Below, piece after piece: positions 9,476-28,353 of a DNA stretch of 32,000 nucleotides. The DNA is taken from contig SUPR01000009.1 in NCBI GenBank assembly GCA_005191425.1, forward strand, positions 21,502 through 53,501, written 5' to 3'. The position numbers were made by a program, and so were the translations under genes. The DNA is from Candidatus Helarchaeota ASGARD archaeon Hel_GB_B. GTDB lineage: Archaea > Asgardarchaeota > Lokiarchaeia > Helarchaeales > HEL-GB-B. The notes under the pieces were generated by a model. It saw only the letters and a program-made list of their open reading frames with translations, was not told where the DNA came from and made no database searches. Each line of letters opens with the position of its first letter. The first letter of the stretch is position 1.

Positions 9476-9491
9476 TAGTCGTGAAATTTTT

Positions 9492-10826
9492 ATGGAATTT
9501 TTAAGTGAAGACTTATTATCTCTTGCATTTATTAATCTGAGTTTAAAATATTTTAGTACCTTAGACCAAACCAAAAAAGCAAGGCGAAAAAAATACAAAT
9601 TAATCAGTACAATGTTTCCAATTCTTAATGAAGTAATTTTCTCTACCAAGGCTCTTCCATTATTTTTACCAAGAGTACCAATTTCTGGAGAAAAATATGA
9701 TGATATATCAAGAATATTAGGGGACATTAATTAGCCGAAGATATTTTGGGGTCAAATGTACTTACAAAAGGCATTGGTGTAGCTTCAAAAGTAATATCAT
9801 TAGATTCAATTGTTTTAAAGCAATTAGACCAAGTATATGCTAGCTATAAAAAATATGTAGATATCTGTGAACGGTCAAATAAATATTTTATATCTTGTTT
9901 TGGGACAGAATTATTTTATGGAGCTGTTCTCGATCACCATAAAAATCTAATTGATGCTAATCTTTCTTTTGGCACGCGATGTGTGAGTTTAAATAAAAGT
10001 TTTGAGTTAATTTCTCAAGTCGGAATAAAAGAGCTATTTATAGACATACCAAATTATGAGACTGAAACACCACATAGTCTTTATTATTTATATGACCAAA
10101 TTCAAGAATTCGCAATTAATCTTGAAGAGTTAGCTGGACCTATTGACGAAGAAAAAGTTATTAAATATACTGAGTTAATTAACAATATAAAAAATTTATA
10201 TTTAGAGTTCTATTCATTCTTTAAAGAAAAATATCTTCCGATGAGGCCTACATCATTTCAGCACTTATTCTCAATGATTAATTTAAGTTATATTGATTTA
10301 ATTTGTGCTCCAAAATATTTATACAGAAATTTAAAATCATTAATTCAAGAATTAAAGAGTAGAATTGTAGAAGGAAAAGGATTCGATTCCCCTGATTCTG
10401 TGAATTTGCTATTACTCCCAAGTTTCGGCGGTTATGATGGTGAATTGTGCAATTATGCTGCAGAAAATAATGCATTTGTATTTTATTCAGATTAGTGGTT
10501 TTTGGGAATGTTAAACCCAGTTGATTTAAAAGGAGATTGGATCAAGAATCAAGCAAAGTTTTGTTTATGTATTGAGAATACATGGGCTTTTTCTGAATCA
10601 ATTGTGAATCAATGGATAAAAATGATTAAAAAATTAAAAATTGATGGCATTATCTTTAATGATATTACAAGGTTGCAATTCTATTTCTGCTGCAGAATTT
10701 CATTTAAGAAAGGAACTACAAAAAATAGATCTGCCAATAGTCAGTACCAATTTTAGAAATATTGGAGAGAATCTTGAACAATTAAGGACATGTATCAGCG
10801 CTTTAATAGAAACTATTAGAAAGTAA
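9492..10826 (+). pseudogene. Disrupted third 2-hydroxyacyl-CoA dehydratase-family subunit (paralog of 8099..9475)
   Basis: ORF fragments 9492-9734, 9746-10495, 10502-10756 and 10641-10826 align collinearly with the 8099 protein (LPLFLPRV vs VPIHFPRV; SCFGT; GTRC; DGIIFN; GENLEQLRT). Lesions: 1-nt deletion near 9730, in-frame TAG at 10493-10495 opposite the paralog's Trp, and 1-nt insertion near 10668. Confidence 0.85.
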
Positions 10827-11206
10827 ATTAGTAATTAATATCATAAATTTATCAATTAATAGAAATTAAATAAATTGAGAAAATAATAATTGCCCTAGAT
10901 TAAAATATCTAATCGATAAAATATTTATACCCAAAAATTTTATTAAGAAATAATCGTTTTTGTTCTTTTTCTTATGATTGTTTATAATAGAATATTAAAT
11001 GTATAGAAAACTGTATTATCAAAGGATATTTGAATTACAATTCTTTTAATTTATTTTTCTTATTTTAAATTTGATTTTCATCCATTAAATTTAAATTTTC
11101 AAAGGATTTTTCATTGATTATTAAAATTTTATTCAATCAAAATTAATATAATTTAAATTGAATAAAAAGTTCTAATTAAAGAATAAATTTGAAGGGAAAT
11201 TAAGAG

Positions 11207-17453: not shown

Positions 17454-18068
17454 ATGGTCAGTGAAAGATATTTTTTGTTTGGAATTGAAGAGATGGGTAT
17501 TGCATTAGATTCGATTATAAAAGAAACAAAATTTGATTTAGAATTAGTTGAAAAACTTATTCAAGGAATTAAATCTAATAAATTGCCCACAGATAAGCTT
17601 ATCGATTTTCTTAACAATTTTTTAAATTATAATATATTAAATGTGCTAATCAATGATAAAAAAATAGGAGAACATATAAAAGAACAATTTATTAACAAAA
17701 AAGGTAAAAAAGTAGTCTTAAAATTTGATTTTATGAAACCGGTTCTTATTGAGGTCAAGTCAGATTCTATATTGATAAACATAGAATTTATAGATTCTCT
17801 GTCAAATGTTCCTAATTTATCATTGTCCAGTGAACATTTAATTGCTCTTTTTGAGAATAATTTTAAATTTTTAAAATTTATTTCATTACCGCCAGATAAT
17901 CCACTTTCAATTAATATTCCTGACCATGATCGTGAGTATCTCGCTGATTTAATTGTAAGGATATTTCTTGCTGTTTCAACGGCAATTTTATTACGGGCTG
18001 ATCTACGAAATAAAATAATTAAAAATATAGACAGTTCAATCCAAGCAATTTCAAGTCTTTTAATTTAA
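17454..18068 (+). CDS. Hypothetical protein; C-terminal half weakly SCP2 (sterol/lipid carrier)-like
   Basis: 204-aa ORF ending 13 nt before the flavoprotein gene. The pattern KKVVLKFDF..VLIEVK..I....PNLSLSSEHLIALFE..F.F suggests SCP2, but the match is weak. Confidence 0.6.
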   Translation: MVSERYFLFGIEEMGIALDSIIKETKFDLELVEKLIQGIKSNKLPTDKLIDFLNNFLNYNILNVLINDKKIGEHIKEQFINKKGKKVVLKFDFMKPVLIEVKSDSILINIEFIDSLSNVPNLSLSSEHLIALFENNFKFLKFISLPPDNPLSINIPDHDREYLADLIVRIFLAVSTAILLRADLRNKIIKNIDSSIQAISSLLI

Positions 18069-18081
18069 AGGGGTGTAAAAT

Positions 18082-19521
18082 ATGAGTAATGAGATAATTG
18101 AGCAGCTTATTAAAATTGTTGGAGAGGATAATGTATCAATAGATCCTTATGAATTAGCAATTTATTCAAGAGATTTTAATAATTTTGGATCAACTCCAGA
18201 TTATATAGTTACCTGTCATTCAAAAGAAGAAGTTATGAAAATACTCCAATTTGCTAATGAAAATTATATTCCAATTACTCCAAAATCTTCTAAAATAGAT
18301 TATTTTGGTGCTGCGATTCCAAGTTATGGTGGAATTCTTTTAAACCTCCAAGAAATGAAAAAAATTAAAAAAATTGATACTACACTTAATAGGTACGCTA
18401 CAGTCGAGCCAGGAGTCACATTTGAAGATTTACAAAAAGAATTAGATAAATTAGGATTTCAAGTTATGATGCCTTTGGGCGTATCATGTAAAAATTCAAT
18501 ATTATCTACATATCTTGAGCGCACTCCACTTCTAAGTGGTCCAATACCTATTTTGTCTAATGGGTGGCAATGTATTTTCGATATGGACGTCTTGCTCCCA
18601 AACGGTGATAATTTTCATACTGGGTCTGGAGAAGCTACACCAAAATTTAAAAATTTAACACCTCATGGAGTAACTGGGCCAGATTTCTCCCGAATATTTA
18701 CAGGGGCCCAAGGCACTATGGGTATAATTACTGAGATGACTGTTAAAATCAAACGCAAATATCCCTTTGAATCGATTTTTACATATAATGCTGAGAAAGA
18801 TTCTTTATTAGACATAGTTTCTAAGATTAAAAAATTAGATATCGGTAAAGAATGTCTTATTATTAGTAAATTAAATATGGCTAGTATCCTTGCAGAGGAT
18901 TTTGACCAAGTAGATGAATTAATAGATATTTTACCAGATTGGACAATGGTGCTTCGAGTTGCAGGATACGATGAGGAAGAACTTCAAGTCAATCTTGCAG
19001 ATCTTGAAGATTTTAAACTTTCTAATTCCATTAATACACTGGAAATTCTTACAAATATAAATAATATTGAAGAAATTTTTCTAAATGAATTTAAATTACC
19101 CAATAAATTAATCAATTTTAGGTATTATCAAGGTCATTGTCAAACTATTTCATTCTATACTGAAAAAGATAGGATCAGAGATTTTGATAAACAAGTTGAA
19201 TATGTCGCTAATAACTATAATTATCCGATAGATAATTTGTATGGTTTTATCATGCCTATTGAGCAGGGGCGAACATTTTATTATGAATATAATTTTCATT
19301 CGAACCATAATAATGTGGACGATTACTTTAGAATTCAAAAATTATACCAAGAAGTGTGTGAAATAGTTATTAATCTTGGTGGAATTATTGATCGCCCCTA
19401 TGGAGAATATCTAATAAACCTTATTTATTCCAAAATACCCGAATATTATAATAATATCTTAATAATAAAAAATTGGTTCGATCCAAACAATATTTTAAAC
19501 CCAGGAAAAATCTTTTATTGA
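18082..19521 (+). CDS. FAD-binding oxidoreductase, GlcD/D-LDH/VAO superfamily (FAD_binding_4 + FAD-oxidase_C)
   Basis: PDYIVTCHSKEEV, GGILLNLQEMKKI, ATVEPGVT, FTGAQGTMGIITE, WFDPNNILNPGK. Confidence 0.9.
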   Translation: MSNEIIEQLIKIVGEDNVSIDPYELAIYSRDFNNFGSTPDYIVTCHSKEEVMKILQFANENYIPITPKSSKIDYFGAAIPSYGGILLNLQEMKKIKKIDTTLNRYATVEPGVTFEDLQKELDKLGFQVMMPLGVSCKNSILSTYLERTPLLSGPIPILSNGWQCIFDMDVLLPNGDNFHTGSGEATPKFKNLTPHGVTGPDFSRIFTGAQGTMGIITEMTVKIKRKYPFESIFTYNAEKDSLLDIVSKIKKLDIGKECLIISKLNMASILAEDFDQVDELIDILPDWTMVLRVAGYDEEELQVNLADLEDFKLSNSINTLEILTNINNIEEIFLNEFKLPNKLINFRYYQGHCQTISFYTEKDRIRDFDKQVEYVANNYNYPIDNLYGFIMPIEQGRTFYYEYNFHSNHNNVDDYFRIQKLYQEVCEIVINLGGIIDRPYGEYLINLIYSKIPEYYNNILIIKNWFDPNNILNPGKIFY

Positions 19522-19598
19522 TTATCATTAATTTTTTGACTTGATTTGCTTAAATTAATAAACAATGATTAAGTATGTAGAAATTTAAATTAAAATAG

Positions 19599-20783
19599 AT
19601 GATATTAATGAGTAAAGAACTTAAAGATTTTCATGCAGATGTCTGGCATTGTACAAAATGTTTTTGCTGCGCATATATTAATCCTTATTATCTGACAGAT
19701 GAAAATTATTATGATGGATGCCCAGCAGGAAAATATTTTAAGTTTGATTCCCATCATGCATCAGGACGAATGGAAATTGCTCGAGGTATAATTGAAGAAG
19801 AACTTCCATATCCTTCTGAAAAACTTCTGGAGATAATTTATTCTTGTACTACCTGTGGACTTTGCCAAGCAAATTGCTCATTTTTAAAGGACCTAACACC
19901 TGTAGATGTAATAGAAGCAGTTAGAAGAAAATTAGTCGCCGATGGTATTGGACCTATGCCTCAACATAAAAGATTTGCGGAATCAATTAAAAAAGAGCAT
20001 AATCCATACCGAGAAGAACATTCAAAAAGGTTCAAAAGTTTTAAAGATGCTAAAATAAATCCAGATGCTGAAATTATTTATTATATAGGTTGTACTAGCT
20101 CATATCGAACAAAAGAAATAGCTCAGTCCACCATTGAAATTTTAAATAAATTAAACATTGACTATACTATTTTGGGAGATGATGAATGGTGCTGTGGAAG
20201 TCCATTATTTAGGACTGGCCAGATGAATGAAGGAAAAATGGTCATGGAACATAATATAAAAGTTATTAATAATAAATACCCAAAAGCTAAACAAATCCTA
20301 TTTTCATGTGCAGGGTGTTATCGTGCATTTAAAAAAGATTACGATGAACTGTCTGAATTAAAACTGAAACCTAAAACGGAACACATTTCTGAATTCATAC
20401 AAAAATTGATCAAAAAGGGAAAATTAAATTTCAATAAAAAAGATGTTTCTATAACATATCACGACCCATGTCATTTAGGTAGACATTTGGGAGTCTATGA
20501 ACAGCCAAGGGAAGTAATAAATTCATTTTCTAATTTGGTCGAGATGCCCCGAAACAGGATAAATGCATGGTGTTGTGGCTCTGGAGGTGGAGTCAAGTCT
20601 GCTTTTAATGATATGGCGATGGCTACGGCTATAGATCGCTTGAATGAAGCTATTAGTACCAATTCTGATATTCTAATGTCAACATGCCCATTTTGTAAAT
20701 TAAATTTATCTCAAGCTAATGAAAAAAACACTGAAAAAATAGAAATAATGGATCTTGTTGAATATATTGCAAAAATACTTTAA
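19599..20783 (+). CDS. HdrD/GlcF-like (Fe-S)-binding protein with two CCG domains
   Basis: CTKCFCC...CP, CTTCGLCQANC, YYIGCT..WCCGSP..SCAGCY, YHDPCHLGR..WCCGSGGG..TCPFC. Confidence 0.92.
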   Translation: MILMSKELKDFHADVWHCTKCFCCAYINPYYLTDENYYDGCPAGKYFKFDSHHASGRMEIARGIIEEELPYPSEKLLEIIYSCTTCGLCQANCSFLKDLTPVDVIEAVRRKLVADGIGPMPQHKRFAESIKKEHNPYREEHSKRFKSFKDAKINPDAEIIYYIGCTSSYRTKEIAQSTIEILNKLNIDYTILGDDEWCCGSPLFRTGQMNEGKMVMEHNIKVINNKYPKAKQILFSCAGCYRAFKKDYDELSELKLKPKTEHISEFIQKLIKKGKLNFNKKDVSITYHDPCHLGRHLGVYEQPREVINSFSNLVEMPRNRINAWCCGSGGGVKSAFNDMAMATAIDRLNEAISTNSDILMSTCPFCKLNLSQANEKNTEKIEIMDLVEYIAKIL

Positions 20784-21253: not shown

Positions 21254-23011
21254 TTGACTGACGAGAAAAAAGAAAAAATTAAAAGTCGCAAAAAAAAGAA
21301 GAGAGATTCGATAGCAAAACTTAAGCAACAGATGATTGATTATATAAATAATATAAAAACATATGAAGATTGGGACAAATTTGTTCAGATGTTTATGTTA
21401 AGGTTTCCAGAACGAAAAAAGAAATTTTTTACGGACTCAGGAATTGAAATTAAACGGTTATATATACCAGATGATATAAAAGATATTGATTATAATAGAG
21501 ACATTGGATATCCGAGTGTTCCGCCTTTTGTTAGAGGGGTTTATCCTACAATGCATAGAGGCAGATTTTGGACACAAAGATTAATTTGTGGGACGGGTAC
21601 TCCTGAAGATACAAATGAACGGCTTAAATTTTTAATTGATCAAGGGCAAACAGGATTAAATATAATATATGATTTACCATCTCATCGAGGAATTGACCCA
21701 GATGATCCTAGAGCTAAAGGAGAAATTGGAAAAGACGGAGTGAACTGTTGCTGTTTAGAAGATATGCGTGCAATATTTAAAGATATAGATTATAAAAAAT
21801 ATTCAGTTTCTCAAATAACAGCCATTCATGTTTTATGTATGTATATTGCAATGGCAGAATTAGACGGAGTAGATATATCAGAATTAAGAGGAACAGTTCA
21901 AAGTGATATGTTTAATGCAATTCAGGGTTGTGGAGCTTTAGCTTCAGATGTAACCAGACGTGGAAAGGGTGCTATAGATTATTCAGTTGAGATTTGTGTC
22001 GATATTATTGAATTTTGTTCAAAATATATGCCTAAATGGTACCCAATATCCATAGTTGGACGCAATATAAGAGAAGCAGGGGCTGATGCAGTTTCAGAAA
22101 TTGCGCTTGCTTTTTCAAATGGCCTTGCATTTGTTGAAAAAGCTATGGCGAGAGGATTAGATATTAATGAATTTGGAGAACGTTTATCATTTATGTTTTG
22201 TTGTGAAAATGACTTTTTCGAAGAAATAGCGAAATTTAGAGCTGCACGAAGAGTATGGTATAGATTAATGAAAGAAAAAGGTGCAACAAATCCTTTAGCA
22301 ATGTTAGTACGGATGCATGTCCAAAATAGTAGTATAGCTTATACAGCGCAACAACCTCTTAATAATATTATCCGTGGTACTCTTCATACTACAGCTGCTG
22401 TATTAGGTGGTGCACAATCACTCCATACTAATGCTTATGATGAAGCATGGGGACTTCCAACTGAAAAAGCAGCTATGATTGCTTTACGAACACAACAAAT
22501 TATAGCCGAAGAATCAGGTATCATGAATACAATTGACCCACTTGCGGGTTCATATTATATCGAAACTTTAACCAATGAATTAGCTGAAAGAATTTATAAT
22601 ATGGTAAAAGAAATGCAAGAGAAAGGTGGCTCCGTAGAATTAACTGAAAATGGATGGATTGCTAATTTACTGGAAGAAAATGCATATAAATATCAGCAAG
22701 AAATTGAAAGTGGTGAAAGAGTAATTGTTGGGGTTAATAAATATGTTTTAGAAGATGAAGAGTTAGATATTGAAATCCATGAAATTCCTGAAGAGGTAGC
22801 AGAACATCAAATCGCCAGAGTACAAAGAGTTAGAAAAGAGAGAGACCCAGAAAAATGGAAAGCTGCAATAGAAGAATTAAAACGAGTATGTGATGCAAAA
22901 GAAAAAGATCCAAAAGTCAATATTATGCGAGCATTAATTGACGCCTATAAAGCAGGTGCAACTTTAGGAGAATGTTATAAAACTATGTGGTCCGATTATA
23001 GGTTCTTGTGA
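21254..23011 (+). CDS. Adenosylcobalamin-dependent acyl-CoA mutase, large (substrate-binding) subunit, methylmalonyl-CoA mutase family with divergent active site
   Basis: PFVRGVYPTMHRGRFWT, DQGQTGL..YDLP, FEEIAKFRAARRVW, GGAQSLHTNAYDEA, RTQQIIAEESG, DPLAGSYYIE, VIVGVNKY. TTG start. Confidence 0.95.
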   Translation: MTDEKKEKIKSRKKKKRDSIAKLKQQMIDYINNIKTYEDWDKFVQMFMLRFPERKKKFFTDSGIEIKRLYIPDDIKDIDYNRDIGYPSVPPFVRGVYPTMHRGRFWTQRLICGTGTPEDTNERLKFLIDQGQTGLNIIYDLPSHRGIDPDDPRAKGEIGKDGVNCCCLEDMRAIFKDIDYKKYSVSQITAIHVLCMYIAMAELDGVDISELRGTVQSDMFNAIQGCGALASDVTRRGKGAIDYSVEICVDIIEFCSKYMPKWYPISIVGRNIREAGADAVSEIALAFSNGLAFVEKAMARGLDINEFGERLSFMFCCENDFFEEIAKFRAARRVWYRLMKEKGATNPLAMLVRMHVQNSSIAYTAQQPLNNIIRGTLHTTAAVLGGAQSLHTNAYDEAWGLPTEKAAMIALRTQQIIAEESGIMNTIDPLAGSYYIETLTNELAERIYNMVKEMQEKGGSVELTENGWIANLLEENAYKYQQEIESGERVIVGVNKYVLEDEELDIEIHEIPEEVAEHQIARVQRVRKERDPEKWKAAIEELKRVCDAKEKDPKVNIMRALIDAYKAGATLGECYKTMWSDYRFL

Positions 23012-23016
23012 GAGAA

Positions 23017-23022
23017 GGAGGT
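23017..23022 (+). promoter_or_regulatory. Shine-Dalgarno site of the mutase B12-binding subunit
   Basis: GGAGGT 8 nt upstream of ATG 23031, within the 19-nt gap after the large-subunit stop. Confidence 0.7.
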
Positions 23023-23030
23023 CAATTTTT

Positions 23031-23438
23031 ATGAAAAGAAAATTGAAGGTATTAACTGCAAAACCTGGTTTGGACGGACATGATAGAGGAATAAAAATTG
23101 TCAATAGAGTTTTTGTAGAATCTGGAATGGAAGTAGTTTATATTGGAAATAGTACTCCAGAAGAAATAATTAAAGCAAGTATTGATGAGGATGCAGATAT
23201 TATTGGCCTGTCAATTTTATCTTCTAGCTATAAAATTTTAATTCCTGAATTTCTTGATCTTGTGGAAAAAAATGGACTAAAGAACCGAATGCTATTATTG
23301 GGTGGAATTATTTTACCACGAGATAAAAAAAATTATTTAGAGAGAGGATTTGCAGGAGTTTACGGACCTGGTACTAATATTAAAAAAGTCGTGGAATTTA
23401 TCCATTCAAAATTCAATATAAAGGAATCAGATGAGTGA
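23031..23438 (+). CDS. Cobalamin-binding small subunit of acyl-CoA mutase
   Basis: Base-off/His-on motif KPGLDGHDRG, GLSIL, LLGGII. Directly follows the large subunit. Confidence 0.95.
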   Translation: MKRKLKVLTAKPGLDGHDRGIKIVNRVFVESGMEVVYIGNSTPEEIIKASIDEDADIIGLSILSSSYKILIPEFLDLVEKNGLKNRMLLLGGIILPRDKKNYLERGFAGVYGPGTNIKKVVEFIHSKFNIKESDE

Positions 23439-23684: not shown

Positions 23685-25175
23685 TTGGTGAACCCCATGA
23701 AAAAATATGATTATATAATTATAGGTAGTGGTCTTGGAGGCTTAGGAGCAGCAGGAATATTAGTAAAAAATGGGAAAAAAGTATTAATTATTGAAAAAAA
23801 TAATAAACCAGGAGGACGATGCTCTTCGTATCAGAAAGATGGTTTTACAATAGACTATGGGACACATATTATTACTAGATCTGAATATGGGCCAATTGGA
23901 GAAATTACAAGTCAGCTAGGTGTTAAAAATTTATTAAAATTCTTTCATTTACATAGAATGCCATCTTACATCTTAAAAGAAAATTCAGCTTTTGGACCAT
24001 TTGGAATAGATATTAACCAAAAAAGTACATTAAGTATTCCGATTAATGATACAAATTTAAATGAATTAGAAATTTCTAAAGATAATTTTCAAAATATTTT
24101 TGGAAAAATGTCAAAATTGGTACAAAATATTTCAATTCCTAAGACCAGAGAGTTGGATAATGTCCCTTTTCAGACATATATGAAAGAATTAGACCTTGGA
24201 GCGGGAGTAAATCAAATATTATACTTTTTATTTATGGCAGGTCTATGTGTAATGCCCCATGAAGGTTCTGCAGGTGAATTTTTAAGAACTTTATTATATG
24301 TTATGAGTTCTAGCATAAAATCAGTATGGATGGACCATGATGGATTAAGCTTTGGATATCCATATGGAAGTTGTAGCGCAATTCCAGACGTAATATGTAA
24401 GGGTATTAGAAACTTTGGAGGAGAATTTCTGTTCAACACTACCGTAAATGAGATAATTATTAAAGACAATAGGGCTGTGGGTGTTAAAACTTCAAAAGAT
24501 GAAATAATAATGGGCGATAAAATTATAAGTAATGTCGGCCCTAAAGAAACAATATTGCAATTATGTAAAAATGAGATAACTGAAAAATCATATAAAGAAA
24601 AAATTAAAAAATTAAAACCCTCGATCAGGTCATTAGTCCTAAAAATTGCACTTGATAGTCCAATTACAAATGAACCATTTCAATTCTTATTGACAAGTGA
24701 AATGGAAAAAACACTTGAGATGACCTTAAAAAATAAGGTATCTAAAATACCAATAGGAATTTTTATACCAGCTACTTCAATAATGGATCCATCACTTGCA
24801 CCAAAAGGTAAGCAACTTTTACTTCCAGGTACTGTATATGCCCCATATGTAGATACGGGAATTAATATTGAAAAAATTAAAAATAATGTCCTTGGATGTT
24901 TAGAACTCGTATTTCCCCACATCCAAAAGCATATTAAATGGGTAGATATATTTTCACCTGAAACAGCAATGAAATTATGGAATAATGTTGATGGGGCAAT
25001 TAATAGAATTGGACAAACAATTGACCAAGTCGGTAAAAATCAACTTGATTTCTTTACGCCGATTGATGAACTTTATTTGGTGGGATGTGGAATTGGTAAG
25101 AATATCTCAGGAATAGGAACAGAATTTGCACTTTCAAGCGGGATGACACTAGCAAATCAATTATTAAAAAAATAA
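23685..25175 (+). CDS. Phytoene desaturase (CrtI)-family NAD(P)/FAD oxidoreductase
   Basis: YDYIIIGSGLGGL...IEKNNKPGGRCSSYQKDGFTIDYGTH, YPYGSCSAIPDVI, C-terminal LYLVG..G.G. The true start is probably ATG 23697, preceded by GGTGA. Confidence 0.85.
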   Translation: MVNPMKKYDYIIIGSGLGGLGAAGILVKNGKKVLIIEKNNKPGGRCSSYQKDGFTIDYGTHIITRSEYGPIGEITSQLGVKNLLKFFHLHRMPSYILKENSAFGPFGIDINQKSTLSIPINDTNLNELEISKDNFQNIFGKMSKLVQNISIPKTRELDNVPFQTYMKELDLGAGVNQILYFLFMAGLCVMPHEGSAGEFLRTLLYVMSSSIKSVWMDHDGLSFGYPYGSCSAIPDVICKGIRNFGGEFLFNTTVNEIIIKDNRAVGVKTSKDEIIMGDKIISNVGPKETILQLCKNEITEKSYKEKIKKLKPSIRSLVLKIALDSPITNEPFQFLLTSEMEKTLEMTLKNKVSKIPIGIFIPATSIMDPSLAPKGKQLLLPGTVYAPYVDTGINIEKIKNNVLGCLELVFPHIQKHIKWVDIFSPETAMKLWNNVDGAINRIGQTIDQVGKNQLDFFTPIDELYLVGCGIGKNISGIGTEFALSSGMTLANQLLKK

Positions 25176-26184: not shown

Positions 26185-26572
26185 AGATAGGAGTAAAAGA
26201 ATGGTCTACGGGCGTATTGCGCCTGAGGAAAGTCCTCCCTTCCACTTGGCGACAGTGTAGCGGTTTAAAGCTACTAGGCGAGAGCCTACCTCTGAGAGCA
26301 GAAACGACACGTCCATACTCTAAATGATGATGAAGCGGCTGAGAAAGATTTCATCTTTCGAGAAGATTTTGGTGACAAAATTAAGTTAACCCGTTGAAGA
26401 GGAGTATGGGACCGTTGAAACGGCTCATGACTGTGGAAGCAAGCTCAAATAAGTCCCCGATGAAGTGCCAAGATGAGGGGACGGGTAGAGCGCTTAGATC
26501 GATACCATAAAAACATTCTCCAAAATTTCTTGGAGTGTTTTAACAAAAGGAGGCTTACTTTTACACCTATCT
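26185..26572 (+). ncRNA. rnpB: Archaeal RNase P RNA (type A)
   Basis: P1: GATAGGAGTAAAAG (26186-26199) pairs with CTTTTACACCTATC (26558-26571). CR-I GAGGAAAGTCC (26225-26235). CR-V AACAAAAGGAGGCTTAC (26542-26558). GCAGAAAC and TGAAACGG conserved regions. P3, P7 (ACAGT/ACTGT), P8 (GTAGC/GCTAC), P9 (TAGGC-GAGA-GCCTA), P12 (CCATACTC/GAGTATGG), P15 (GCTC/GAGC), P16 (GTCCCC/GGGGAC) and P6 (CTTGGC 26245-50 / GCCAAG 26467-72) all pair. Confidence 0.97.
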
Positions 26573-26782: not shown

Positions 26783-26814
26783 TTACTATATTAATCCGCT
26801 TACTATATTAATCC
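26783..26814. repeat. Perfect 15-bp tandem direct repeat (17-bp period)
   Basis: TTACTATATTAATCC at 26783-26797 and 26800-26814. The second copy contains the wHTH stop codon. Confidence 0.9.
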
Positions 26815-27116
26815 CAATGTGTAAAAAATGTCTGTAATAATTTAATTTTATAATATTCAGTCATTAAGCGATAAATTTTAACTCTACCGAATTTTTTTTC
26901 TTCAATAACTTTATTATTAACAAAATATTTTAAATGAGTATTGACTTGAGTTGAGTTCATTTTAGTCATTTTTACGATTTGGGTAATGTTTAGCTCATTA
27001 TATTTTGCAAGTAAATATAAGATTTTTACTCTACCTTTTGAAGATAAAAGGTCAATGATTGAGACGACATTTTCATTAGAGGGGGAGGTACCATTTTGTA
27101 TTTGCATATATATCAC
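26808..27116 (-). CDS. Small winged-helix (ArsR-like) DNA-binding protein
   Basis: LLSSKGRVKILYLLAKYNELNITQIVKMTKMNSTQVNTHLKYFVNNKVIEEKKFGRVKIYRL. Likely start is ATG 27107 after GGTGA; only a few nt downstream of cdc6. Confidence 0.88.
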   Translation of the reverse strand: MIYMQIQNGTSPSNENVVSIIDLLSSKGRVKILYLLAKYNELNITQIVKMTKMNSTQVNTHLKYFVNNKVIEEKKFGRVKIYRLMTEYYKIKLLQTFFTHWD

Positions 27117-27120
27117 CTTT

Positions 27121-28353
27121 TTAAGATTGTTCCAATAGTTGTGTTAATTCTTCTTCGAGTAGTTCAAGTGGTGCATCATTAATACTAATTAAGGTAGATC
27201 GTCCGCGTTTATTTTTACCTGAGACTTTAGTTTTTATAATGCCAAAAGTCGTTTCTAAATCTTTAATATTATTCCAATTAGTGGTATGTTGAGTAGCTTT
27301 AAAGTTAAATTCTTCACAGATAATTGCATATTGGTCTTCTACATCACTAATTTCAACATAAACAGTTTCTTCTTTTTTGAGTTTTCGTACAATAGCAAGT
27401 AATAATATTTTCTGGTTATAGGTCAGGTCTCTAAGTATTTCGCGCTTGATCATTGGATGAATATTGGACTGAGCTATACGGACATGTTCGGGCGATATTT
27501 TTAAATTGCATTCTTTATTAGCCACGCCCCCAGCTACTCTAAGTAATTCAAGAGCATAACGGGCATCACCAAATTCTGCCGAAGTTTCTGCGATTTGTTC
27601 TAAAATTTCCTTCGAAACAGTACCACTGTAAAATGCTTCTTTACACCGTTCTGCTAAAATATCAAAAAGTTGTTCTGCAGTATATTTCTTCATGGTTATA
27701 CAAGGATTTTGGAGTGTGCTACGTGTGGACTTGTCCAAAAGGTGTAGAAACGATGTATTTCTTGCGATTATTATTAATGAGATATATTGATCAGAGTTAA
27801 ATTCCTCGTCCATTAACCTAGTCAAGTCATATAAGATTGGCGATTTATCGACCATATAATCTAACTCGTCCAGAGTAAGGACTATATATTTTTTCTCCTT
27901 GATTAAAATATCTTTTAGTATATCTAATAACTCTTCTGGAGAATATCCTCTACTAGGAATTGCAGAATAGAAAGATAAGATAATATTTTTTAATATTAAT
28001 GAATATGTCCTATTTCTTCTACAATTGACGTGGTGATAGTAAATATTTAGGTTACGCTTTTTTGCAACACTTTTTAGCATCTGTCCAAACGATTTTGCAA
28101 TTGCAGTTTTGCCAGTACCTACTGGTCCAGTAATAAGCACTTTTCGGTTAGCTTTCATTGGGTGCTCTATAATTACGCGAAATTCATTAATCAAATTTTT
28201 TAATTCATTTTCTCGATGAGGAAGTATTGATGGTATATAATTTATAGATAATTTAGACTCGTCCTTAAATATGGTCGGTTTTTCTAGTTCTTTTTCAAAT
28301 AAGTTGGTACTTTCTATATGGCTTGAAGTGGTCCTTTCATTCATTTTTTTCAC
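27121..28353 (-). CDS. cdc6: Orc1/Cdc6 replication initiator
   Basis: IFKDESKLSINYIPSILPHRE, Walker A GPVGTGKT, HVNCR, Walker B LTLDELD, GDARYALELLR, and a C-terminal winged helix (GKNKRGRST). Confidence 0.97.
   Translation of the reverse strand: MKKMNERTTSSHIESTNLFEKELEKPTIFKDESKLSINYIPSILPHRENELKNLINEFRVIIEHPMKANRKVLITGPVGTGKTAIAKSFGQMLKSVAKKRNLNIYYHHVNCRRNRTYSLILKNIILSFYSAIPSRGYSPEELLDILKDILIKEKKYIVLTLDELDYMVDKSPILYDLTRLMDEEFNSDQYISLIIIARNTSFLHLLDKSTRSTLQNPCITMKKYTAEQLFDILAERCKEAFYSGTVSKEILEQIAETSAEFGDARYALELLRVAGGVANKECNLKISPEHVRIAQSNIHPMIKREILRDLTYNQKILLLAIVRKLKKEETVYVEISDVEDQYAIICEEFNFKATQHTTNWNNIKDLETTFGIIKTKVSGKNKRGRSTLISINDAPLELLEEELTQLLEQS

Follow-up and report, generated by a model that had tools for sequence, protein, structure and literature searches.

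Split B12-dependent acyl-CoA mutases with a substituted substrate pocket: a putative Helarchaeales-specific subfamily

To our knowledge, only a handful of acyl-CoA mutase specificities have been described: methylmalonyl-CoA mutase (MCM), isobutyryl-CoA mutase (ICM, including IcmF), ethylmalonyl-CoA mutase (ECM), 2-hydroxyisobutyryl-CoA mutase (HCM) and pivalyl-CoA mutase (PCM); each new specificity has so far opened a pathway or a biocatalytic route. In the characterised enzymes, positions 89, 116 and 207 (numbered as in P. shermanii MCM) presumably select the acyl group and positions 243/244 polarise the thioester, and we take the MCM residues T85, R87, Q197, E247, R283, S285, H328, Q330, Q361 and N366 to line the CoA channel or the adenosyl site. 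His244 is important for turnover in MCM, and Asp117 of HCM binds the substrate hydroxyl. Here, we analysed a stretch of 32,000 nucleotides (hereafter the window) from the Candidatus Helarchaeota archaeon Hel_GB_B, which encodes a large and a small mutase subunit (P0001 and P0002) belonging to a clade of Helarchaeales proteins. The window (GC about 0.28, archaeal) represents contig C182 of a metagenome-assembled genome (MAG) of 3.54 Mb that is 94% complete. A first-pass annotation made from the sequence had described the pair as an intact mutase whose pocket signature is unlike that of any characterised type, and both open reading frames, all of the motifs that it quoted (WTQRLICG, GLNIIYDL, SVSQIT, QSDMFNAIQGC and SIVGRNIREAG) and their codon positions are present in the translation. 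The two genes and their principal elements are as follows:

21254..23011, forward strand: mutase large subunit P0001 (substrate-binding TIM barrel), 585 amino acids, TTG start
21254-21340, forward strand: Lys-rich N-terminal extension of about 25 residues (KKEKIKSRKKKKRDS...LKxQMI), kept across the clade
23031..23438, forward strand: small B12-binding subunit P0002, 135 amino acids, 19 nucleotides downstream of the large subunit
23073..23090, forward strand: DxHxxG cobalt-ligand motif D15-G-H17-D-R-G20 (GLDGHDRG), from translation and alignment

P0001 matched PF01642 (MM_CoA_mutase; 582.8 bits, cut-off 22.1) and TIGR00641 (568.7 bits, cut-off 303.8), P0002 matched PF02310 (64.5 bits) and TIGR00640 (124.7 bits, cut-off 57.45), and their sequences place both in the acyl-CoA mutase family in terms of fold, cofactor domain and the majority of conserved positions. 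Against the MCM equivalog model NF006944, P0001 reached 478 bits, below the cut-off of 876, and its scores were likewise too low with the IcmF model (243 bits, cut-off 1500) and with TIGR00642, the model of the MCM small (beta) subunit (176 bits, cut-off 617). The best solved match in the HMMER comparison was HCM (4r3u; 463 bits, E 1e-137), with human MCM (2xij) and P. shermanii MCM (1req) at 344 and 338 bits, respectively. The Lys-rich extension of P0001 is missing in canonical archaeal mutases, and most members of the clade start with TTG or GTG.

We matched residues pairwise through HMMER alignments to HCM 4r3u and human MCM 2xij, and used MAFFT to build a set comprising M. petroleiphilum HCM, E. 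coli and S. meliloti MCM, Ruegeria MeaA/ECM and about 40 archaeal mutases, in which the characterised types were MCM, ICM-type, HCM and ECM. The pocket residues and loops of P0001 that stand out in these alignments are:

21584..21586, forward strand: Ile111, at the position of Tyr89 of P. shermanii MCM
Leu110, in place of the otherwise conserved Gln88 of MCM (from the alignments)
21659..21667, forward strand: Asn136-Ile137-Ile138 (GLNII), against Ser114-Val-Ala116 in MCM and Ser-Thr-Asp117 in HCM
21803..21826, forward strand: short loop SVSQI-TAI, with a deletion of 3 residues relative to STSMTINxxA and the changes Thr to Val185 and Thr to Ile188
21929..21931, forward strand: Cys226, where MCM has Arg207 and both ICM and HCM have Gln
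21947..21970, forward strand: insertion D232-G239 (DVTRRGKG) of 8 residues after the strand bearing position 207, clade-specific
22061..22066, forward strand: Arg270-Asn271, replacing Tyr243-His244, invariant in 18/18 clade members

The substitutions first proposed for Y89, A116, R207, Y243 and H244 were upheld by the HMMER and MAFFT alignments, which place no Tyr, Arg or Tyr-His at the canonical positions (Y89 = I111, Q88 = L110, S114 = N136, A116 = I138, R207 = C226, Y243 = R270 and H244 = N271). The alignments agreed likewise with the residues said to be retained: Q216, E274, H355/Q357 and N393 correspond to MCM Q197, E247, H328/Q330 and N366, and the DxHxxG motif of the small subunit is kept. 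As to the loops, the shortening had been recognised correctly (the 3-residue deletion), but the insertion D232-G239 had been overlooked; it is a gap in HCM, MCM and every canonical sequence aligned, and its residues R236 and G237 are invariant within the clade. The Tyr243-His244 dyad occurs in every characterised type aligned and is missing from P0001, which has Arg270-Asn271 there. Both the carboxylate clamp of MCM (Tyr89/Arg207) and the ICM signature (Phe89/Gln207) are replaced by Ile111 and Cys226, and of the HCM signature (Ile90 with Asp117) the Ile is present, whereas Asp117 is exchanged for Ile138. P0001 lacks the dyad as well as each of the subtype signatures tested (MCM, ICM, HCM and MeaA), and its pocket does differ, as the first-pass annotation had held, from those of the aligned MCM, ICM-type, HCM and ECM.

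HCM (HcmAB of Aquincola tertiaricarbonis, 4r3u, with the orthologue L025 on a plasmid of M. petroleiphilum PM1) is about 43% identical to P0001 and has in common with P0001/P0002 the split into large and small subunits, an Ile at position 89/90 and the lack of an Arg at 207. It differs by Asp117, where P0001 has Ile138, and by Gln at 207/208, where P0001 has Cys226; it keeps Tyr-His at 243/244 and has neither the 8-residue insertion nor the 3-residue deletion, and its genes adjoin those of MeaB and a CoA ligase, whereas the Helarchaeales pair has no adjoining MeaB. MCM (P. shermanii 1req, human 2xij and the archaeal split MCM) has the same fold, the same CoA- and adenosyl-side positions and the same His-on B12 domain, but Tyr89, Arg207, Tyr243 and His244 are each replaced in P0001. 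The ICM type (L001 of the same genome; IcmF 4xc6) has a hydrophobic residue at 89, as does P0001, but combines Phe89, Gln207 and Tyr-His where P0001 has Ile, Cys with the insertion, and Arg-Asn. MeaA/ECM of Ruegeria is only 31% identical to P0001, distant in the trees and different in its motifs (RTYAG, SRG, SYH).

The extent of the change became apparent when the alignment columns of 16 clade sequences were compared with those of 46 others, a position being counted as conserved at 85% or more. At 31 positions, a residue conserved in 85% or more of the other mutases is switched to one that is fixed in the clade, and nearly all of these positions lie within active-site motifs. A further 130 family-conserved positions are kept in the clade as well as in the other mutases; T107, R109, Q216, E274, R310, S312, H355, Q357, Q388 and N393, which correspond in this order to the ten MCM residues named above (T85 to N366), are kept in both, and R104 (the R82 equivalent) is variable.

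A search of a large database yielded 17 close relatives, which are 66-89% identical; identity then falls abruptly to 48-49% for canonical archaeal MCM. The relatives are named Candidatus Helarchaeota or Promethearchaeota, and the matches above 51% identity are all Helarchaeota; of the 301 phylum genomes analysed, only two, that of the window and G294 from the same order, encode a homologue with more than 51% identity. The full pocket signature is found in all 17 relatives and in the homologue of G294, so that the combination Ile, Ile, Cys, Arg, Asn does define a conserved clade, as had been suggested (18/18 members), and is not peculiar to one genome. In five clade genes for which DNA was available, the proportion of nonsynonymous differences (pN) was 0.09-0.14 and that of synonymous differences (pS) 0.72-0.90 (saturated), and the single calculable ratio of nonsynonymous to synonymous rates (dN/dS) was 0.04. 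Because pN is far below pS, the mutase gene is maintained and not decaying; decay to a pseudogene was ruled out on the same grounds. The pocket replacements Ile, Ile, Cys (with the 8-residue loop) and Arg-Asn are fixed under purifying selection. The view of the enzyme as intact gains support from the conserved clade, the low pN relative to pS, the dedicated B12 subunit and the 130 family positions that are kept.

The gene might instead encode a paralogue without catalytic activity, which could have a structural or regulatory function comparable to that of the inactive beta chain in heterodimeric MCM, or could sense B12 or CoA esters; the loss of the catalytic His244 together with Tyr243, as well as the lack of an adjoining chaperone, would be in line with such a role. 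We consider this very unlikely, because the conserved CoA- and adenosyl-side positions are kept, unlike in MutA-type beta chains, the protein has its own His-on B12 subunit, the switched residues are invariant and show no drift, and the 583 bits on the catalytic-domain model stand against 176 on TIGR00642 (cut-off 617).

P0002 and the canonical small subunit of the same genome share 47% identity, and P0002 keeps DxHxxG. A dedicated small subunit with this motif is encoded in each of the six contexts examined, and the pair of large and small subunits is the sole unit kept in all of them (6/6). The genome encodes three mutase large subunits, of which one paralogue (L002) has an MCM-type signature (Y, R, YH) and another (L001:1441-3072) an ICM-type signature (F, Q, YH). 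Because MCM-type and ICM-type copies are both present, the third, divergent large subunit would be superfluous for the MCM and ICM reactions. There are also three small-subunit-like genes, two of them on contig C96 by MeaB, the third being P0002. The sole MeaB of the genome adjoins the canonical small subunits on C96, in agreement with the earlier statement that no MeaB gene is adjacent to the mutase; none was found in the window. Of the two small-subunit-like genes on C96, the one that adjoins the canonical copy (L033:2086-2520) encodes GTGNDLN where DGHDRG would be expected, and thus no cobalt-ligating His.

In a phylogenetic tree with annotated references, the clade is monophyletic (support of 100 in the Shimodaira-Hasegawa-like approximate likelihood-ratio test, SH-aLRT) on a long stem of 1.04 substitutions per site, and is placed among archaeal sequences of the Gln207 type (including Phe89/Gln207) and HCM, apart from MCM; the pairing of the clade with HCM may be due to long-branch attraction. 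In the trees, the stem of the clade is long (about 0.6-1.0 substitutions per site) and its internal branches are short, as would be expected from neofunctionalisation.

P0001 and P0002 appear to represent a Helarchaeales-specific subfamily in which the first-shell substrate pocket has been rebuilt, and we think it moderately probable that they form an active, split adenosylcobalamin-dependent acyl-CoA mutase with a non-canonical specificity. Such an enzyme would still perform the radical 1,2-shift of the CoA-thioester group, presumably on a substrate other than methylmalonyl-, isobutyryl-, 2-hydroxyisobutyryl- or ethylmalonyl-CoA. Arg270 might either stand in for His244 by hydrogen bonding to, or placing a charge near, the carbonyl of the thioester, or hold a substituent that is polar or anionic from a side not used in the known enzymes, and the remaining pocket (Leu110, Ile111, Ile138, Val185 and Ile188) would be more hydrophobic than that of MCM. 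Alternatively, P0001 could be a divergent mutase that catalyses a known reaction (an isobutyryl/butyryl-CoA, pivalyl/isovaleryl-CoA or hydroxyacyl-CoA shift) with other pocket residues. The nesting of the clade among Gln207-type (ICM/HCM-like) and hydrophobic-pocket sequences, away from MCM, and the Ile at 89 common to HCM and P0001 are compatible with this, and PCM is not represented in the reference set. However, an ICM-type paralogue is already present in the genome, Ile138 takes the place of Asp117 of HCM, Tyr243 and His244, kept by all characterised types aligned, are both replaced, and 31 conserved positions are switched, so that we regard a known reaction as unlikely.

To place the clade in a wider context, we searched its profile against 1.84 billion representatives, which gave 21,600 family members; the following counts refer to the best 150 of these (P0123-P0272), a ranking that favours sequences related to the query profile. 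Tyr-His is found at 243/244 in only 55 of them; Asn244 occurs in about 20, mostly as Tyr-Asn and in two bacterial groups as Arg-Asn, and other pairs include Tyr-Asp, His-Cys, His-Ala, Gln-His and more. The near-invariance of Y243/H244, which the first-pass annotation had taken as established, holds for the characterised enzymes but not for these representatives. As these 150 representatives show, the mutase family has an extensive "dark" diversity of proteins that depart from the canonical residues at 89, 116, 243 and 244. In a tree of 97 sequences, the Helarchaeales clade lies inside a group of 51 non-canonical sequences (SH-aLRT 99), which stands apart from the groups formed by MCM, the ICM type and HCM; those members of the radiation that are named derive from metagenome-assembled Thermodesulfobacteriota and Dehalococcoidia genomes. 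On this tree, the Helarchaeales clade is one branch of a large, uncharacterised mutase-like radiation and not singular. In the best tree, the Helarchaeales clade and both of the bacterial Arg-Asn groups fall together with weak support (SH-aLRT 74), and Arg-Asn may have originated once or twice.

The bacterial Arg-Asn proteins (P0140/P0295 and P0174/P0299, from Thermodesulfobacteriota MAGs) are 35-40% identical to P0001 and resemble it in that the SxxQI-type loop is short, the 207 strand is followed by an RG.G element and a small B12 subunit is encoded alongside. They differ in having Val/Cys or Val/Val at 89/116, where P0001 has Ile/Ile, in a shorter loop after 207, and in their small subunits, in which DxHxxG is altered (PGHSTG, YYHQRG), whereas P0002 of the Helarchaeales is canonical. 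The bacterial relatives within the radiation are also bare pairs of large and small subunits, sometimes in tandem. At L041:9001-13303 (Thermodesulfobacteriota MAG GCA_040757775.1), two non-canonical large subunits are encoded in tandem, with a separate small-subunit gene behind each; the first large subunit carries Arg-Asn, and in the small subunit paired with it PGHSTG takes the place of DxHxxG. A conserved cassette of enoyl-CoA hydratase, mutase large subunit, small subunit and CoA-transferase is carried by a Marinobacter plasmid (L030:1653-5675) and a Paraburkholderia plasmid (L032:1595-5705); its large subunit has Tyr243 replaced by Ala (SIAGAH), and the mutase looks like another uncharacterised type.

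Several points weigh against P0001/P0002 being an active mutase of new specificity. His244 is missing from P0001, and catalysis by Arg-Asn is an assumption. The AlphaFold 2 model of the mutase is of moderate quality (predicted local distance difference test, pLDDT, 71), and its 8-residue insertion is only moderately confident. MeaB is absent from the window and from the related loci. The substrate cannot be inferred from the genomic context, because synteny of the genes upstream is limited to one sub-lineage. Separately from these points, the uniqueness that the first-pass annotation had implied did not hold, given that His244 is often replaced in the radiation and that Arg-Asn is also present in Thermodesulfobacteriota.

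A more far-reaching possibility is that the Arg-Asn mutases constitute a new catalytic variant with an undescribed carbon-skeleton rearrangement, tied in Helarchaeales to alkane or branched-acyl metabolism, which we judge to be quite unlikely. In that case, for example, the enzyme might straighten the branched acyl thioester that results when short alkanes are activated subterminally, or a polar or dicarboxylic acyl-CoA, held by Arg270, might be rearranged. Our literature search found no paper tying Helarchaeota to a special mutase. A mutase for the conversion of 2-butyl-coenzyme M (2-butyl-CoM) to 1-butyl-CoM has been postulated, the enzyme being unknown (PMC9118554), and the substrate of P0001 might not be a CoA ester at all but, e.g., a CoM thioether of the alkyl-CoM reductase pathway of Helarchaeales. 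A gene similar to that of the alpha subunit of methyl-CoM reductase (MCR-alpha) is present in both Helarchaeales genomes searched, the clade is confined to this order among the 301 phylum genomes, and some CoA-channel residues are altered (S114 to N136; R104, the R82 equivalent, variable). Nevertheless, most of the CoA-contact positions of MCM are kept, no close homologue was found in other archaea with alkyl-CoM reductase, every match above 51% identity being from Helarchaeota, and the closest relatives come from bacterial lineages that lack such reductases, which makes a non-CoA substrate extremely improbable. The co-occurrence with alkyl-CoM reductase was discounted as evidence, as it concerns only two genomes of one order.

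If P0001/P0002 is active, His244 would be dispensable or replaceable by Arg-Asn, and one more reaction would be added to the carbon metabolism of Asgard archaea and sediments. The Helarchaeales clade, a third paralogue without the Tyr-His dyad, would provide a clean and conserved test case, and since anaerobic sediment bacteria harbour many such variants, the characterisation of a single member would provide an annotation for numerous proteins. Engineered mutases have been used for synthetic CO2-dependent assimilation of acetyl-CoA (PMC11599936).

The remaining features of the window that bear on the surroundings of the mutase are:

17454..20783, forward strand: upstream neighbours of the mutase, i.e., a 204-amino-acid protein, a GlcD-like protein and a CCG/4Fe-4S protein (Pfam/NCBIfam)
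18082-19521, forward strand: GlcD-like FAD_binding_4 flavoprotein (Pfam/NCBIfam)
19599-20783, forward strand: CCG/4Fe-4S protein (Pfam/NCBIfam)
26189-26568, forward strand: archaeal RNase P RNA (RF00373, 164 bits; Rfam)
27121-28353, reverse strand: Orc1/Cdc6 gene, then an ArsR-type HTH gene (26808-27116, reverse strand)

The upstream block consists of HGD-D/double-cubane-like genes, the 204-amino-acid orphan (no match in Pfam, NCBIfam or Atlas), the GlcD-like flavoprotein and the CCG iron-sulfur protein. It is syntenic in the window, L004 and L006, and absent from L005, G294 (L039) and the P0017 contig; as evidence for a shared pathway with the mutase it was ruled out, the synteny being found in one sub-lineage only. 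In the window, an AT-rich spacer of 470 nucleotides separates the block from the mutase, and in L004 a valyl-tRNA synthetase gene intervenes. The third HGD-D/double-cubane-like gene (9490-10830, forward strand) looks broken: its open reading frame (9746-10495, 249 amino acids) ends at an in-frame TAG, homologous-looking coding sequence continues past the TAG to about 10826, and the counterpart in L006 has 441 amino acids. Downstream, a CrtI-like gene (23685-25175) is found near the mutase in three of the six contexts. Rfam detected no riboswitch or other RNA element upstream of the mutase, the sole match in the window being the RNase P RNA, and the short open reading frames listed over the latter are likely spurious. 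A replication origin may be located near the Orc1/Cdc6 gene.

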